Source: Krischvirus LF73P4. Taken from it: a DNA stretch of 64,000 nt. The translations under genes and the position numbers were made by a program. The notes beneath the pieces are model-generated. The model did not search any database and was not told the DNA's origin. It worked only from the letters and a program-made list of their open reading frames with translations. Shown one piece after another: positions 38,901-46,660 of the stretch. Every line of letters begins with the position of its first letter. Position 1 is the stretch's first letter. The stretch is from the sequence record OZ035795.1; one strand, written 5' to 3'.

Positions 38901-39145
38901 AATTAGAACAAGCGATTGTATACTTTGAGATGGGCTATGATATTGCTCGTGTAGAGTGGGAAGATGGTGATTTTGTCCGATTGATTGATCTTCCAGAAAC
39001 AGCTATTGCACTGGTCAAAGTAGAAAACGGCATACAACGAAATTACGCGTTTTCTGACGAAGACAAACAAGCCGATGACTGGTACGCTACATGTTTTCAT
39101 CATACAGCGTCAAAATGCGATTCAGGCGCGTCTATGCGTCAATAA
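38897..39145 (+). CDS. hypothetical protein
   Basis: 82-aa ORF; last gene of plus-strand block before convergent terminator. Confidence 0.4.
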   Translation: MKLEQAIVYFEMGYDIARVEWEDGDFVRLIDLPETAIALVKVENGIQRNYAFSDEDKQADDWYATCFHHTASKCDSGASMRQ

Positions 39146-39159
39146 ATGCGTCAATAAAA

Positions 39160-39190
39160 AAGAAGGGGAGGCCGAAAGGCTTCCCCTTTA
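39160..39190. terminator. bidirectional terminator between convergent plus-strand block and holin t
   Basis: AAAAAAGAAGGGGAGGCCGAAAGGCTTCCCCTTTA: GC stem flanked by A-run and T-run. Confidence 0.6.
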
Positions 39191-39192
39191 AG

Positions 39193-39849
39193 TTATCTAA
39201 TCCTTCCGAGGATTCTGGCAGATTGATTGCAAAGAGTATCTAAATTCTCAATGTCAATATCCGGTTTATTCTTCCATGCAATGGAGATACTACCAGAATA
39301 GACATTATCGAGATTGAATATAGGGCAAGAATACATAAACCCTATATCGATACTCTCTAATTTCTTTTCTCTTGATGGAATATACTGGAAATCTTTATCG
39401 GTAAAATATGATTTACCTAAAAGATGCCTACGATATTCTTCACTCGTTTTATTGATAGGGAATCCGCCTAAATTTTTTTCATCGATTGTATGCGGTAACT
39501 TTCCTTCATATGCCACCAAATCAACAAAATAGTTTAGGTTTTTCGGACGAAAACTAAAAACAGCAGAAAAATCGGCATCAGCCGACACATGAACTATCTG
39601 TAACTGCTCCTGTGCTGCATTATCAAAATTGCGGTCTTTCTCTACCTGGAGAACGTGAGCATAAGTCTCATAACGAGTCTCTTTATAAAGCGCAAATAAC
39701 TCGTTTTTACTATAAACGACAAATGCTAATATAGACAACACGACGGCAGCAAAAACACGAAGTACGAGCAACTCCGTGCTTTTAGTTGTGAAAATAGCGC
39801 GCAGGACATTTGAGATAGCAAAGTCTTTCCCTTTTTCAGAAACTTGCAT
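39193..39849 (-). CDS. t: holin T
   Basis: 218 aa; N-terminal TM segment; YETY; EQLQIVHVSADADFSAVFSFRPKNLNYFVDLVAYEGKLP; MYSCP.FNLDN.Y.G.I; ARILGR match recalled T4 holin. Confidence 0.85.
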   Translation of the reverse strand: MQVSEKGKDFAISNVLRAIFTTKSTELLVLRVFAAVVLSILAFVVYSKNELFALYKETRYETYAHVLQVEKDRNFDNAAQEQLQIVHVSADADFSAVFSFRPKNLNYFVDLVAYEGKLPHTIDEKNLGGFPINKTSEEYRRHLLGKSYFTDKDFQYIPSREKKLESIDIGFMYSCPIFNLDNVYSGSISIAWKNKPDIDIENLDTLCNQSARILGRIR

Positions 39850-39882
39850 ATAATGCCCTAAGATAACTATGACAGTGTACTC

Positions 39883-40122
39883 TTATTTAGGTAGTTGACT
39901 ATCACTATTTTTATTTTGCTCGTTGCTATCTTCTGACTGATCTTTATTAAACTCCTTATAAAGTTCTTCCACAAAACGATCATCAATTGGCGTATTGGTA
40001 TAAGCCGCAAGACGACGAGCGCAATAGAAGAAAATTTTAGTGAGCATCTTTTCACTAATTAACTTTGACAATAGTTTCATTCCGAAATTAGACAAAGCAC
40101 CAATGACGATATTATAGACCAT
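39883..40122 (-). CDS. hypothetical protein between gene 38 and t
   Basis: 79-aa ORF with AAGGAG RBS on minus strand; hydrophobic/amphipathic N-terminus, acidic tail. Confidence 0.4.
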   Translation of the reverse strand: MVYNIVIGALSNFGMKLLSKLISEKMLTKIFFYCARRLAAYTNTPIDDRFVEELYKEFNKDQSEDSNEQNKNSDSQLPK

Positions 40123-40185
40123 AGCCGTTTCTCCTTAGTAGTTCCCTTCCGTGGGAGTTTTCCTTAATTCTTTTTATAATTGCGT

Positions 40186-40968
40186 CTAAACAGCCGGTCC
40201 GTAAATAGCTCCGCGATTTTGCCACGTTGGAGAAGACCCTATAACAGCATATCCAGAATCGCCGCCATTATATTCAGATCCTTGACCACGAATATTACAT
40301 CTACCTCCTGCGGCGCCTACCTCACCACCGCTTCCACCATTATAGATACCGTTCACGGACCCCGAACCGGGCGCATAAAGAGTACCAGCAGTTGCGCCTG
40401 ATTGCATATCAATAGATCCGCCCGGCGCACCAAACGGACGCCCACCGCCACCGCCAAAGGTTAATCTCATTTGTGAAAAAGGAGAATAATACCCGCCACC
40501 GCCACCGCCACCGCCACCTGCAATAGCTCCACCATTATTAATTCTTAGTCTCCCACCAATATCATTTTGAATACAATGCCCCCCGGCTGATCCAGGACCA
40601 TTGCTACCGCCATTCCCGCCACGACCATACATCGTTACGCCATGTATATTCAACTGAACATATTCATTCGGTGTATCTCCGTACATAAAGAATAAAGGAA
40701 CATCTTTAGAATATGATACTAAATCTCCAGTGATATTAAACACTATAGGTGTACTACCTGCTTCAAAGCATCTATCACGGAACCACTGACCGTTGAAGTT
40801 ATGGTCTGCACCAAGTGTATGAATAATTTCTCGCGAGCGACCTGCAAATTGACTCATCCAGCAAGGAACACCCAATCTTAATTGACCAGCCGCTTGACTC
40901 ATCCATCGTTGTCCTGTTTCATTTGCGGCTGAACTTCCAATCCAACCAGGAACACCAACTACTGCCAT
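40186..40968 (-). CDS. 38: tail-fibre adhesin gp38 (T2-type, glycine-rich motifs)
   Basis: 260 aa directly downstream of gene 37; conserved N-terminal part then poly-Gly blocks ([30 protein letters not shown]) separating short variable segments. Confidence 0.75.
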
Positions 40969-40976
40969 AATTTATA

Positions 40977-41002
40977 CTCCAAAGGGGGCAACGCCCCCTT
41001 GT
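40977..41002 (-). terminator. hairpin between gene 37 and gene 38
   Basis: AAGGGGGCAACGCCCCCTT palindrome in 36-nt intergenic spacer. Confidence 0.35.
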
Positions 41003-41004
41003 TG

Positions 41005-43785
41005 TTAGAATTTAAAATATTTACTAATTTTGCGAGCAATTTTAGTAAAGAAAGGAGTTTTCAATTCTTTAATTTCTTCACTCATTTCCTGAATAGCCTT
41101 AATTAAAAGAGCATTCACTGCCGAGTTAGAAATTGTCAGAACATCAGATCCATCAACTTCAACTTTAGATACAGCTTCCGGCAATTCTTTTTCAAGATCC
41201 TGAGCAATAATACCAGCTTCACGTTTAATCACACTACGATCTTTAATAGACTTAACTTTATCGTAAGTATAAACTTTCAGACGGCATACTTTTTCAAGTG
41301 CTCCGTTTTCTAACTCTTCTTTATTAATCTTAAGACGGGAGTCAGAACGAATATACACATCGCTAAAGCTACCATTTCCTGGTGTATAAAAGAACCCATC
41401 ATGATGGAATTCAAACACAGCTTGTGGGTGTCCAGCATCAGGAGAAGCCTCCGTGGATCCGACACGAATGATTGCTTGCCCCCACTGTGATGGAATACGA
41501 CGCATACCAAAGTCAACAGCGGTGCTATATCCTTGATTGGTTATAACGCTTCTTGCTTTAAGAATAGGATAATAACTATCTTGACCAACATAACCATGAT
41601 CAACGAATAATGGAGCTTCTACTCGCCATTGGTTGCCCCAATCACCTGGTTGTCTGGCAACCCAACTTGCACCATTGATATACATACGATCGCGGTTAAC
41701 GTTAACCATTAAGGTATTTTGCGGGTTTAAAGATATCTCGCCAGAATTTGTAATATAAATTGCAGAATTACTAGCATAACTAAAAAACCCTAATCCGTTA
41801 TCAGCGCCTCCTTTCCCTATATACCAATTATTATTACCATCACAACTACCCAACAAATAAACCGAATCTCCAGATGACGGAGCATTCAAAACTATTGCGT
41901 CCGAACCACGATTAACAGTTATTTTATCGGAAGATTCTATTTGACCAAAGAATTTAGTTTTAATTGCACCAGTCGCTAAAGTACGTTCAGTGGAAAAATG
42001 AGCGCCTTTGCTATCTTCTAACTGAATAATGTTATCACGAGCGTTATTGCTATCACCCCAATGGTTAAATTTAAAATAATCTCGTGATCCTAAACGTCCG
42101 GCGTCAAAAGTCATCAAGCCTTTCATGTTAATATCACCACCAAAAAATGCGGTGAGAGAATCACGTTTTAATTTTAAAACGTTAGCACCACTAGTACCAC
42201 CCAAAGTAACATCACCAGTTCTTAATTCATAACGGAAAGGTCTATTTGTATTAAAGTTTCCATCTTGATCATTTTCGTCGGTGGAAAGAATATAAAGACT
42301 CTCTCCATCATTACGTAAAAATGCACCAAATTTTCCGCCATACATACGGAATGCATTCAACGAGCGGAATTTAACTTCTGTTTTAAATGTGGTAGTGTTA
42401 TTAAGGTTAACAGTAGAGTTAAAGTTAACTGCGCCATTAAAATCTTGTTTAGCAGTCCAAGTATGTGATCCGTCTTCAAGAACAACACGGCGAACTGTAC
42501 AAGTTCTATTTCCCGGATTACCAGCAACACGAACGACAAAATAACGGTAGTTTGTCTGGGATACAGTACCACGCCAAACCTGAACAGTACGCCCTGTGCC
42601 AGTGTGTTCGCTAGGACCGACAGAAAACATAACCAAGTTTCCGTCAATCGCACCCCAATCCATATTTGCTGGCATGTTCTTTATTTTGTTCAAAGGAACA
42701 CTAAACATACTACCAGGGACAAAATCAAAGGTTTGCCAGTCTAGCTCCGCTAATTGAGATTTAACACCACCCATACCCAGAGTGATCGGCATAGAATAGG
42801 ACGTATATACTTCGTACCAATTTCCCCAGATGTTATTTGTCATCGCACGTTCAAACACGCGAGATCGCGTAGTTGCACCCGTTCCTGCGGTAGTGAAACG
42901 TTGGAAAATAGCGGCACCGGAAGCACGCTGTTTAACCTCAAGCAATCCGGTCATCTCAACCGGAACACCTTCTGCAACTGGACGGTTAATAACGGCATCA
43001 GTCCCTAAAATGTTATACAAGCCAGGAGAACGAAAATTATTAAGATCCCCGTCATAGAATGTGTTTGGAGTAACCATACCTACTTGTTGCCACGGTCCCC
43101 AATTCGGAGCTTCTGGATCCCATGCACCAGCAAGACAACGAACATATACAACACCCATTCGGGTAGTATAACGTTGCGTGCGAGAATAGTTACCACCTTC
43201 ATAAATTTCTAAAAGACCTTGCGCGAGACCACCTTCTTCTGGGTAATTTCGAGAAAATGATGCAATGGAACTTAAACTATTTCGCCATAACCCAAAATGA
43301 GAAGCATCACCTAAAGTATTCAAGTCTAGTGTAGTTGATAGTGGACGTGTGCCAGTTTGAATATTGCGCCACGGACCCCATGGACCATCTACGCCATTCC
43401 ATTTAGCAGACAAAGAACGGATATAAACGTTACCAGACCGAACAGTATAACGCTGAGTGCCAGCAAATTGACCAGCCACAAATACTTCTAATACACCTAC
43501 AGCATTCTCTTCTGGGAATTTATTTGCTGGCTGCGCATTTGTTGAAGTTGATTTAGACCAAACGCCAGTAAATTTACCAGTAGGTCCATAATTATCTAAA
43601 TTTGCATCAGATGGCAACTCACCGCGAAAGTGTCCCAAAGTAATTACATTATTGCTGTCATCTTTTGTATATAGTTCTCGATCCGCTAGGTTAATAGCAA
43701 GTTCACCCGGAGTTAGAATATTCGCATCCGGCTTGCGACCTGCCGTACTTGTTCTTTTAAATTGGATTCTCTGTAAATCTGCCAT
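41005..43785 (-). CDS. 37: long tail fibre distal subunit gp37 with C-terminal intramolecular chaperone domain
   Basis: 926 aa; N-terminus MADLQRIQFKRTSTAGRKPDANILTPGELAINLADRELYTKDDSNNVI matches recalled gp37 N-terminus; C-terminal ...RSDSRLKINKEEL... carries the SD.R.K motif of S74-type auto-cleaving chaperone domains. Confidence 0.8.
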   Translation of the reverse strand: MADLQRIQFKRTSTAGRKPDANILTPGELAINLADRELYTKDDSNNVITLGHFRGELPSDANLDNYGPTGKFTGVWSKSTSTNAQPANKFPEENAVGVLEVFVAGQFAGTQRYTVRSGNVYIRSLSAKWNGVDGPWGPWRNIQTGTRPLSTTLDLNTLGDASHFGLWRNSLSSIASFSRNYPEEGGLAQGLLEIYEGGNYSRTQRYTTRMGVVYVRCLAGAWDPEAPNWGPWQQVGMVTPNTFYDGDLNNFRSPGLYNILGTDAVINRPVAEGVPVEMTGLLEVKQRASGAAIFQRFTTAGTGATTRSRVFERAMTNNIWGNWYEVYTSYSMPITLGMGGVKSQLAELDWQTFDFVPGSMFSVPLNKIKNMPANMDWGAIDGNLVMFSVGPSEHTGTGRTVQVWRGTVSQTNYRYFVVRVAGNPGNRTCTVRRVVLEDGSHTWTAKQDFNGAVNFNSTVNLNNTTTFKTEVKFRSLNAFRMYGGKFGAFLRNDGESLYILSTDENDQDGNFNTNRPFRYELRTGDVTLGGTSGANVLKLKRDSLTAFFGGDINMKGLMTFDAGRLGSRDYFKFNHWGDSNNARDNIIQLEDSKGAHFSTERTLATGAIKTKFFGQIESSDKITVNRGSDAIVLNAPSSGDSVYLLGSCDGNNNWYIGKGGADNGLGFFSYASNSAIYITNSGEISLNPQNTLMVNVNRDRMYINGASWVARQPGDWGNQWRVEAPLFVDHGYVGQDSYYPILKARSVITNQGYSTAVDFGMRRIPSQWGQAIIRVGSTEASPDAGHPQAVFEFHHDGFFYTPGNGSFSDVYIRSDSRLKINKEELENGALEKVCRLKVYTYDKVKSIKDRSVIKREAGIIAQDLEKELPEAVSKVEVDGSDVLTISNSAVNALLIKAIQEMSEEIKELKTPFFTKIARKISKYFKF

Positions 43786-43852
43786 TTTATAAAATCCTTA
43801 ACGGTTGTTAGAATAATATTATTTAGAAAAGCGGGGATTATCCCCGCTAGAA

Positions 43853-45343
43853 TTAGAAAGTACCAAAATCAATTACCGCATTAAGCGGAACAGCGCCAAC
43901 ATCATCAGGAGTTGGTTTGTGTCCTTCGTGGTATAATTCAAATGTATCGGTGTCCTGAGTATTGTTGCGTGATTTAACGAAAATAATTTTAGAATCATGT
44001 GTGATGCCTAGTTTCTCGTGCGCTTTAATATCACTAACACGATGAATCATTGCTGTGCCATCTAAGCTATTAAGTCCAGCGTAGCAATTATCACCATTAT
44101 AGTTAGCTTTTGCGGTACGAACGCCGTTTGCAGCGGGAACTGTCAAAGCACCTCTCATGGTATCGCCAGTCACATTAACATAGCGAGCATCAGCCAATTT
44201 ACGGTGATCTACATAGTTCCATGCGGTCCATGATTCATTAGAACAAGAACGCCAGCACATCGGATGATCAATAGATTCAGGATAGTATACCTGAACAATT
44301 CGACGAGTACCGACCGCATCTTCTGGGCGATATACCATCAAAACGCCGTTATAATAGCTATCAGACGGTTTATTAGTACCTGATCCAGCATTTTCCACAC
44401 GATAGATACCGCGATTAATAAGAGTGTTCCAATCAACGTTTCCAATGATTGTTGGATTTGCTACCATTGATTTTTTCTCAAAGTAGCTCAAACGAACCAA
44501 TTCATTAGGACCAGCAGGATCGTTTGTCGCCAACATTCTAGGCGCTTGCAAGTTACCTTCCATAATATCACCAGCACGTTTAACCTGTGCATCATTGGTG
44601 ACATTACCTAGTCCAACATCGGCTTTAGTCGGTTTATTGTTGGTGTGGTAGAATCTACCTGCCTTGCCATTAACAGAAATTGTCGGCTCGTTTTTGCTAC
44701 TGAATGCCAAAGTATCAAGACTATTTCCAAAATAAATGGCATTAGAATCGAAAGCAATGAAACCACGATCCCGCGCAAGTATTTTCGAATTAACATCAAG
44801 TTTAAATGTAGCCGTGTTTAAATTATACGTTCCCGTGAGAGTATCACCGCGACGAGACACCAAATCCAAATCATTGTTTGTCGGCTTATTAACAGGACTA
44901 TAGACGCGTTGACCAGTGTCTTTAATGGTTGTCCCTTCGATGGTCCCTTTAGTTTTAAAATCACCTGTGGTAGTGTCAATATAAGCCATGATAACATCAT
45001 CACGAGCATTAACAAAACCAATAGATTTCCACGAATGCAAACCCCAACTTACACCATCAAAGTTAGCCGCATCGCTCTTTCCTTTAAAGATCCCGTTCTT
45101 TTTGGTTTCTCCACCGGATGCGCTACCTACGCTTAAACCTTCCTCAAAATGGACCAGTTTCTGAAATGTACCACCCTCAGATGCACTAACAGCATCAAAA
45201 TCGGCAGCCGAAGGTTTATCAAAAGCGGTATAGATTTTATGACCTTTATAGAAAAGCTGATCACCCGCTGGCTGGATCGTCAAGTTTCCTTGCGTCCAAA
45301 TGGGAGATCCGCCTACAGTAGATCCATGTTTCAAATCTGCCAT
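43853..45343 (-). CDS. 36: long tail fibre connector gp36-like protein
   Basis: 496 aa upstream of 37 on minus strand; N-terminus MADLKHGSTVGGSPIWTQGN resembles recalled gp36 N-terminus; longer than recalled T4 gp36. Confidence 0.55.
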   Translation of the reverse strand: MADLKHGSTVGGSPIWTQGNLTIQPAGDQLFYKGHKIYTAFDKPSAADFDAVSASEGGTFQKLVHFEEGLSVGSASGGETKKNGIFKGKSDAANFDGVSWGLHSWKSIGFVNARDDVIMAYIDTTTGDFKTKGTIEGTTIKDTGQRVYSPVNKPTNNDLDLVSRRGDTLTGTYNLNTATFKLDVNSKILARDRGFIAFDSNAIYFGNSLDTLAFSSKNEPTISVNGKAGRFYHTNNKPTKADVGLGNVTNDAQVKRAGDIMEGNLQAPRMLATNDPAGPNELVRLSYFEKKSMVANPTIIGNVDWNTLINRGIYRVENAGSGTNKPSDSYYNGVLMVYRPEDAVGTRRIVQVYYPESIDHPMCWRSCSNESWTAWNYVDHRKLADARYVNVTGDTMRGALTVPAANGVRTAKANYNGDNCYAGLNSLDGTAMIHRVSDIKAHEKLGITHDSKIIFVKSRNNTQDTDTFELYHEGHKPTPDDVGAVPLNAVIDFGTF

Positions 45344-45376
45344 AAAGTAACCTCAAAAATTAGTTATAGTTCCGAG

Positions 45377-45384
45377 TATTTATA
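45377..45384 (-). promoter_or_regulatory. T4-type late promoter TATAAATA (minus strand) upstream of gene 36-like
   Basis: Plus strand reads TATTTATA about 34 nt upstream of the minus-strand start at 45343. Confidence 0.45.
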
Positions 45385-45553
45385 GAATGTTAACAAAATA
45401 TCGCTTCGCGACGTGCCGTAGGCACTGACTACTTTTTAACCGAAACAAATTTTCTATTATTCTAAAGATCTTTCTTCGTTTTGGTTATGTTTTAACCAAT
45501 AACTATATTTTTATACAGTAATAAATAAAACGGGTACTATACGAGGACTTCTT

Positions 45554-45808
45554 ATGACAGAAGACATTTTGTTAAAACTCTATGATCGTCTGGATAACGA
45601 ATTAGCAACATTGCGGGGTGAAGTTCTCTATTTGTCTAAATGCAATACAGATCTGCTTAAGCAGATTGCAGAAAGGGATGATCAAATAAAATCCCTTTCA
45701 GGTGCATTACGTGATCGCGACAAGGCATTAGAGATTTTACAGCGTGTTACCAATAAGGAAGAATTAAAAGACTTCTTACATGGTTATGCTCATGCCATCG
45801 ATCTATAA
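45554..45808 (+). CDS. hypothetical coiled-coil protein
   Basis: 84-aa plus-strand ORF between two minus-strand blocks; preceded by 210-bp AT-rich spacer, followed by bidirectional terminator. Confidence 0.4.
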   Translation: MTEDILLKLYDRLDNELATLRGEVLYLSKCNTDLLKQIAERDDQIKSLSGALRDRDKALEILQRVTNKEELKDFLHGYAHAIDL

Positions 45809-45811
45809 TAA

Positions 45812-45838
45812 AAAAGCCCGTCAATGACGGGCTTAATG
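45812..45838. terminator. bidirectional terminator between ORF 45554..45808 and gene 2
   Basis: AAAAAAGCCCGTCAATGACGGGCTTAATGTT. Confidence 0.55.
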
Positions 45839-46660
45839 TTATGCATCCTTCCAAACTTTCCTTGCGTCGTATTTCTTGCCTTTTGACATAAACTGATATG
45901 TAGGCATATAGATAATATTGCTCCAGTCTTTCGGGCTAATCTCAACAAGTTTTGTTTTAATGTGTCCCGGTAGATATGCTTTGATCATGTGATCACTTCC
46001 ACGCATACCTTTTACATCGCTCCATTTGATTTTTAAGCGTGTTTTATTGCTCAAGGTAGGAGTAGATGCATATTGCTTTAAAAGTGCCTCTAAAAACTGC
46101 TGACGGGCTTTAGGCGTTACATAGTGTAAGTTAAGACCCAGCATTACAGTATTACCCGCCTTTGTCTTAGAATCACCCAGACAAATGATCAGCGGGAAAA
46201 CATCCCAATATGGTAAAGTGTCTTTATACTTCGCATCATACATAAAGGTATAGATTCGCCCTACTTGCGGTTTTACAATCTGGTGTCCCTTTATTCCCGC
46301 TTTTATTGTTTTAGTAAACCACTCCTGTGATTTTTCTTTAGGACGACTCTTTGATACAGCACGCATAGACGCACGAAAATCATTAATCATCATCATTGCG
46401 CGTTGCTGCTTATTGAGACCCTTTGCACCTTTCCCTTTTAGTTTTTCAACTTCTATTGCTGTTTTAATTTCGCTGGCATAACGAGACATACTTTTAGTGA
46501 AAGTCGCATAGGCTATTCCCTTAGAATCTGCAAATGCTTTAGCTGTCATGCCTTTGGCTTTTGCTTTCGCAAATTCTACACCCAATTCGACCCACTGTTT
46601 AGACTTTCTTTTTTGGGGAGACGGCTTTTCGTCTTCTGTGATTATTTCAAATACGCTCAT
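45839..46660 (-). CDS. 2: DNA end-protector protein gp2-like
   Basis: 273 aa, adjacent to gene 4 on the same strand as in T4; size matches recalled T4 gp2; basic N-terminus. Confidence 0.6.
   Translation of the reverse strand: MSVFEIITEDEKPSPQKRKSKQWVELGVEFAKAKAKGMTAKAFADSKGIAYATFTKSMSRYASEIKTAIEVEKLKGKGAKGLNKQQRAMMMINDFRASMRAVSKSRPKEKSQEWFTKTIKAGIKGHQIVKPQVGRIYTFMYDAKYKDTLPYWDVFPLIICLGDSKTKAGNTVMLGLNLHYVTPKARQQFLEALLKQYASTPTLSNKTRLKIKWSDVKGMRGSDHMIKAYLPGHIKTKLVEISPKDWSNIIYMPTYQFMSKGKKYDARKVWKDA

Follow-up and report, generated by a model that had tools for sequence, protein, structure and literature searches.

The long-tail-fibre locus of Krischvirus LF73P4 raises a question about what meets the host cell at the end of the fibre; namely, whether the product of gene 38 is an adhesin that caps a self-cleaved gp37, or whether gp37 itself forms the receptor-binding tip. 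We analysed a stretch of 64,000 nucleotides from sequence record OZ035795.1 (the window; all coordinates are window positions, and the genes, domains and motifs located below lie on the minus strand). An earlier note, made from the sequence, had claimed here two neighbouring open reading frames, a gp37 ending in an S74-type chaperone domain with an S-D-x-R-x-K signature and a glycine-rich gp38-type adhesin. Both reading frames are present and both assignments stand. Gene 37 (41005–43785) encodes the distal subunit of the long tail fibre (926 amino acids plus stop; open reading frame list and PHROG 1699), and gene 38 (40186–40968) encodes a tail-fibre tip adhesin (260 amino acids plus stop; Pfam GP38, PHROG 2056 and the PDB entries 9V85 and 6F45_D); the spacer between them is 36 nucleotides long (40969–41004). 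For comparison we used the Krischvirus phages KMB43, FL04 and RB49, the Tequatrovirus phages T6 and UAB_60, and the S16 structure 6F45. The module is very probably a long-tail-fibre receptor-binding tip of the kind found in T2, T6 and S16, here in an RB49-like phage, with the nucleoside channel Tsx most probably its receptor, and we see nothing in the sequence that argues against this assignment. The architecture, the mechanism and the structure have already been published, as has the receptor of this very gp38, and the arrangement is the norm for most T-even-like phages.

The C terminus of gp37 carries much of the evidence. The S-D-x-R-x-K motif lies in RSDSRLKINKEEL (gp37 residues 813–825; 41311–41349), and its chance expectation in gp37, computed from the amino-acid composition of the protein itself, is about 0.01 occurrences. 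The Pfam profile Peptidase_S74 (PF13884) matches gp37 residues 814–872 along profile positions 1–57 of 58 (45.0 bits, compared with a curated cut-off of 22 bits; E = 1.3 × 10−11). Profile position 1 falls exactly on Ser814, and Lys819 follows five residues on, which is the S-D-x-R-x-K arrangement. The intramolecular chaperone domain so defined (residues 814–926; 41008–41346; PF13884 and a match to 6F45_A) occupies the extreme C terminus of a protein of the long-tail-fibre family, the last 113 of its 926 residues, a length equal to that reported to be autocleaved in S16. The segment RSDSRLKI aligns opposite SSDRRIKK of the S16 gp37 construct 6F45_A (E = 1.9 × 10−5), and there is also a weak match to the MYRF autocleavage domain. 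The domain is 95–96% identical in T6, KMB43 and FL04 (96% of amino acids in FL04) and 69% identical in RB49. Judged by these matches, the gp37 C terminus is a genuine intramolecular chaperone domain of the S74 type.

A predicted cleavage site stands at the start of this domain. In S16 gp37 the last 113 residues form the intramolecular chaperone, which is autocleaved at DLNVS^SDRRIKK (the caret marks the cut), and for the fPS phages a gp37 cleavage site has been predicted at DVYIR^SDGRLKI by alignment with the S16 site (PMC7917993). Aligned with both, the protein studied here reads DVYIR^SDSRLKI, giving a predicted gp38 docking strand (DVYIR, residues 809–813) followed by a predicted autocleavage site (S814-D-S-R-L-K819; together 41329–41361); the corresponding T6 site, DVYIRSDSRLKINKEEL, is identical. 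The i/i+5 spacing of Ser814 and Lys819 is that of T5 pb1, in which the scissile Ser1264 is activated by Lys1269, and in which an Arg and an Asp upstream, from the neighbouring chain, sense correct trimer folding. Autoproteolytic release has been reported for S16 (PMC7917993) and stated for T2 and T6 (Trojet 2011), and the gp37 proteins of T2, T6, RB49 and most T-even-like phages are described as cleaved and then capped by gp38 (Trojet 2011; Golomidova 2022). RB49 gp37, which differs in length (979 amino acids) and is 38% identical overall, ends in DVYIR-SD-RLKINKEE and an intramolecular chaperone; because site and domain are of the same kind, the same mechanism is expected there. On the analogy of these proteins, the gp37 of LF73P4 probably sheds its C-terminal folding domain by self-cleavage, and its annotation should carry a maturation site between Arg813 and Ser814.

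Cleavage of this kind is compatible with more than one kind of tip. The K1F endosialidase and T5 pb1 resemble gp37 in having a C-terminal domain that begins at the scissile serine, a lysine five residues on and, as predicted for gp37, autoproteolysis that depends on the trimer; in those proteins, however, the cleaved tip is the enzyme or receptor binder itself, whereas cleavage here would create a surface on which a separate adhesin docks. One could therefore propose that the cleaved gp37 tip is the adhesin, much as T5 pb1 and other fibres with an S74 domain contact their receptor themselves once cut, and that gp38 is dispensable or accessory, a proposal favoured by the absence of gene 38 from beside gene 37 in RB49. 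However, RB49 does carry a gene 38, at positions 45367–46143 of its own record (NC_005066), about 105 kb away from gene 37, where small hypothetical genes surround it on the early-gene strand; this displacement was already noted by Trojet et al. (2011), and the encoded protein (258 amino acids) is 57% identical to the gp38 studied here. Published host-range mutants map to this RB49 gene, virions of T6 gene 38 amber mutants have normal morphology but fail to adsorb (Trojet 2011), and the strand preceding the cut in LF73P4 is the conserved DVYIR docking strand. We regard a receptor-binding gp37 tip with an accessory gp38 as very improbable.

The matches of gp38 itself point to an adhesin that docks on a cleaved fibre. 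Pfam GP38 (PF05268) covers residues 47–259 (E = 4.4 × 10−71) and Gp38_N (PF21721) residues 1–42 (E = 6.3 × 10−20). The protein also matches PHROG 2056, ‘tail fiber protein; host specificity’ (E = 6.6 × 10−111), PDB 9V85 (E = 7 × 10−77), given as PP01 gp38 in a paper that cites the entry, and, over its full length, S16 gp38 (6F45_D; E = 3 × 10−47). Within the predicted N-terminal attachment domain (residues 1–42; 40843–40968; Gp38_N), Trp9, Trp22 and Trp37 line up with the tryptophan trio of S16 gp38, which the authors of the S16 structure describe as prongs that the gp37 trimer receives in three equivalent hydrophobic pockets. S16 (6F45; Dunne et al. 2018) serves as the structural prototype, with an autocleaved 113-residue chaperone, a single gp38 docked by three tryptophans, a polyglycine-II sandwich and distal variable loops, and both proteins of LF73P4 align with their S16 counterparts. 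The two systems are nevertheless distant in sequence: gp37 is matched in the chaperone region only, the strand before the cut is DLNVS in S16 and DVYIR here, and the hosts differ. The published S16 account does not locate its receptor-binding site.

Gene order alone cannot separate this arrangement from that of T4, which has genes 37 and 38 at the same positions in its fibre operon. The T4 gp38 is an unrelated folding chaperone that is absent from the virion, and in T4 the gp37 protein binds the receptor with a needle tip of its own and, according to published descriptions of that tip, lacks an S74 domain. If LF73P4 followed T4, its gp38 would be an assembly chaperone outside the virion and the gp37 C terminus would be the receptor-binding tip. 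We consider this extremely improbable: both the families (PF05268 and PF21721) and the solved structures (6F45_D and 9V85) that gp38 matches are those of adhesins, the tryptophan prongs are kept, gp37 ends in an S74 domain, and the T4 gp37 tip structure is not among the PDB matches. Assignment of gp38 to the T4 chaperone class was rejected, as only adhesin families and structures were matched.

The distal part of gp38 has the organization of an adhesin. Glycine makes up 24% of the protein and 34% of residues 115–260, with a run of nine (residues 151–159) and one of five (172–176). The Gly-rich specificity region (40237–40626, delimited by the block positions and corresponding in alignment to the S16 gp38 polyglycine sandwich) contains five Gly-rich blocks (residues 115–130, 146–159, 172–184, 201–222 and 235–244), between which lie variable segments (160–171, 185–200 and 223–234), and a conserved C-terminal motif follows. 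Gly-rich motifs that alternate with hypervariable segments are the published pattern of adhesin gp38 proteins (Trojet 2011), and the full-length alignment to 6F45_D suggests that gp38 takes the polyglycine-II sandwich fold. The suggestion of the earlier note that the stretches separating the Gly blocks set the specificity agrees with the published view. The alignment with T6-type proteins that it proposed gave 89% amino-acid identity for gp38 and 83% for gp37. The gp38 proteins differ at 28 positions, 16 of which are within residues 124–259; the Gly blocks are unchanged, and the differences concentrate between and after them. T6 has the same architecture, with a different gp37 N terminus (about 50 amino acids) followed by an additional insertion of about 60 amino acids, and its surrounding genome, of another genus, barely aligns. 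As far as sequence can decide, the 260-residue protein is a gp38 adhesin of the T2/T6/S16 type.

The identity of the receptor can be approached through close relatives. The gp38 of LF73P4 is identical to the Gp38 of FL04 (WWP71647.1) at 260 of 260 residues. FL04 no longer formed plaques on a host in which tsx was knocked out, its need for Tsx having been established with deletion mutants, and T6 is reported to bind Tsx (PMC12032242). Because the identical FL04 protein requires Tsx, and because T6 gp38 is 89% identical, Tsx is the best prediction, and on these comparisons it is most probably the receptor; the identity of gp38 thus allows the Tsx dependence of the phage to be predicted. FL04 also shares the genus backbone and the gene order gp36, gp37, gp38, 79-residue open reading frame and holin. 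It differs in gp37 (86% of amino acids), several shaft segments of which track T6 or UAB_60 in LF73P4 instead.

Three points limit the assignment. There may be receptors besides Tsx, because RB49-like gp38 proteins are reported to use O-antigens or OmpA (Golomidova 2022). The shaft may also affect host range, because gp37 is mosaic and only 86% identical to that of FL04. Finally, cleavage, incorporation into the virion and stoichiometry are carried over from homologues, the monomeric state of gp38 from S16. The module could accordingly be as described and its receptor not Tsx, or not Tsx alone, with OmpA, another porin or O-antigen in its place. According to PMC12032242, minor changes in the variable segments may suffice to switch gp38 from OmpA to Tsx or the reverse, and fPS-65, a Yersinia phage whose gp38 is 95.8% identical to that studied here, is reported to use lipopolysaccharide and OmpF (PMC7917993). 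Set against these reports are the complete identity to a protein whose receptor was traced to Tsx by deletion mutants and the closeness to T6 gp38, and we think it unlikely that the receptor lies elsewhere or is shared.

If the module works as a T2/T6/S16-type tip, its assembly would proceed in five steps. Genes 36, 37 and 38 would be expressed late, probably from TATAAATA at 45377–45384. Three gp37 chains would then form a beta-helical fibre, aided, as in homologues, by the 113-residue S74 chaperone domain and, by analogy with other T-even phages, by gp57A, whose gene lies outside the window. In a correct trimer, Ser814, activated by Lys819, would cut the Arg813–Ser814 bond at the site indicated by alignment; the chaperone would depart and a tip ending in ...FSDVYIR would be exposed. 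As in S16, one gp38 monomer would then cap this tip, anchored by three tryptophans (Trp9, Trp22 and Trp37) of the helical domain at its N terminus. The Gly-rich motifs of gp38 would form the polyglycine-II sandwich, with the variable segments as distal loops that may bind the outer-membrane receptor.

We also asked how the module relates to the genome around it. Nucleotide identity across the module is 93% to KMB43 and 89% to FL04, and the flanks are 97–98% identical to RB49. The RB49 backbone aligns at 97% of nucleotides up to the edge of a cassette: similarity ends at 40176, ten bases short of the gene 38 stop, and returns at 43658, with only two weaker blocks between (74% and 71%). T6 DNA aligns across 40196–43623 (84.6% identity), where its similarity ends, but elsewhere only over 167 nucleotides of the flanking holin gene (72%). 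We therefore read the region from about codon 55 of gp37 to the end of gene 38 as a cassette that is shared with Tequatrovirus phages and set in a Krischvirus backbone, as the nucleotide alignments indicate. Its borders (about codon 55 of gp37, and just past the gene 38 stop) are natural recombination points for host-range swaps between Krischvirus and Tequatrovirus. Variation in the placement of gene 38 within Krischvirus has already been published: gp38 lies beside the holin in FL04, FL15 and FL20 and elsewhere in FL37 and FL38 (PMC12032242). KMB43 and FL04 have one place for gp38 each, and a tblastn search found no second copy of gp38 or of the intramolecular chaperone domain within the window. 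The counterpart of the displaced RB49 gene 38 locus falls outside the window, and the negative search for a second adhesin covers the window only.

Within the cassette, gp37 has a mixed ancestry. It matches PHROG 1699, ‘long tail fiber protein distal subunit’ (E = 1.7 × 10−184), with amino-acid identities of 92% to KMB43, 86% to FL04, 83% to T6 and 38% to RB49. Its N-terminal 54 or so residues (43624–43785), which mark the right-hand edge of the T6-like cassette, are of the Krischvirus type: they are the same in KMB43 and FL04 and 68% identical in RB49, and presumably form the joint to gp36. The shaft (residues ~55–813; 41347–43623) is T6-like by DNA alignment and includes a Gp34_trimer-type domain at residues 455–518 (Pfam Gp34_trimer, E = 2.6 × 10−13). 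One patch of it (41600–42000; residues ~596–728) is 94% identical in nucleotides to the Tequatrovirus UAB_60, a Salmonella phage, and just 75–80% identical to the Krischvirus phages that are otherwise closest; a second patch (residues ~520–570) tracks T6 and not KMB43 or FL04. With such patches, gp37 within the cassette is a fine-scale mosaic. This mosaic allele is the sole new item, a singleton at 90% clustering whose best relative is 92% identical; beyond it, there is nothing novel in the host-range module itself.

The shaft also contains three tandem repeats of about 90 amino acids (residues ~60–330; ~42790–43600). They are anchored by GVLEVF at residue 97, GLLEIY at residue 190 and GLLEVK at residue 280, each followed by ...TQRYT/FQRFT...W..W. 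Residues 72–297 of this region match a PHROG family annotated as ‘tail collar fiber protein’. T6 has the repeats in common with LF73P4, and RB49 gp37 is without them.

Upstream of gene 37 in the same late operon lies the gene for a gp36-like fibre subunit of 496 amino acids (43853–45343; PHROG 16472 over its full length), which is syntenic with KMB43, FL04 and RB49. A weak match to Pfam Phage_T4_gp36 is limited to its residues 62–140. The protein is more than twice the length of T4 and T6 gp36 (about 220 amino acids), and PHROG 16472 is a family of the Krischvirus type. The sequence TATAAATA, a candidate T4-type late promoter upstream of gp36 identified by its match to the consensus, is the single exact copy of that consensus near the operon. 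A scan of 39100–45600 for sigma-70 promoters and intrinsic terminators returned counts at or below the shuffle expectation. The spacer between genes 37 and 38 contains a GC-rich hairpin, GGGGGC-GTT-GCCCCC (40982–41000; minimum free energy −17.2 kcal/mol, z = −2.05), after which come GGAG, then TATAAATT, which agrees with the late-promoter consensus at 7 of 8 positions, and then the gene 38 ATG. The stem of the hairpin is conserved in KMB43, FL04 and T6, and the loop varies. We speculate that it might tune the expression of gene 38 relative to gene 37, whose products would combine at a ratio of one to three.

Beyond gp36 the order of genes changes. Upstream of that gene (45344–45553) the window departs from the gp35 and gp34 order of KMB43, FL04 and RB49 and enters what in RB49 is the region upstream of gene 3, with a hypothetical gene, gp2, gp4, gp53 and gp5. 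The switch point is inside a sequence of about 100 bp (~45398–45497) that RB49 carries as an inverted pair, one copy upstream of gene 36 and the other upstream of gene 3; among the Krischvirus records listed, it occurs at two places per record (118 places in 58 records). A junction of gp36 with gp2 in one piece is present in none of 58–59 Krischvirus records, and no IMG/VR contig matched the pattern that spans it. The cause is either an inversion or an assembly mis-join. If the repeats recombined, the block of structural genes would have flipped, hence gp36 would stand beside gp2 and gp4, not gp35 and gp34. That the fibre late operon directly abuts a genuine inversion of about 87 kb, produced by recombination between the inverted repeats, is an idea that we hold tentatively and with considerable doubt; a true inversion would mean that T4-like genomes tolerate large inversions through repeats near late promoters.

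On the other side of the module, between gene 38 and the holin gene t, lies a 79-residue open reading frame (39883–40122; open reading frame list) that belongs to PHROG 402, a family of unknown function. It corresponds to RB49p252/Dc5, the small open reading frame that in RB49 directly follows gene 37 and stands alone in the slot that gene 38 occupies here.

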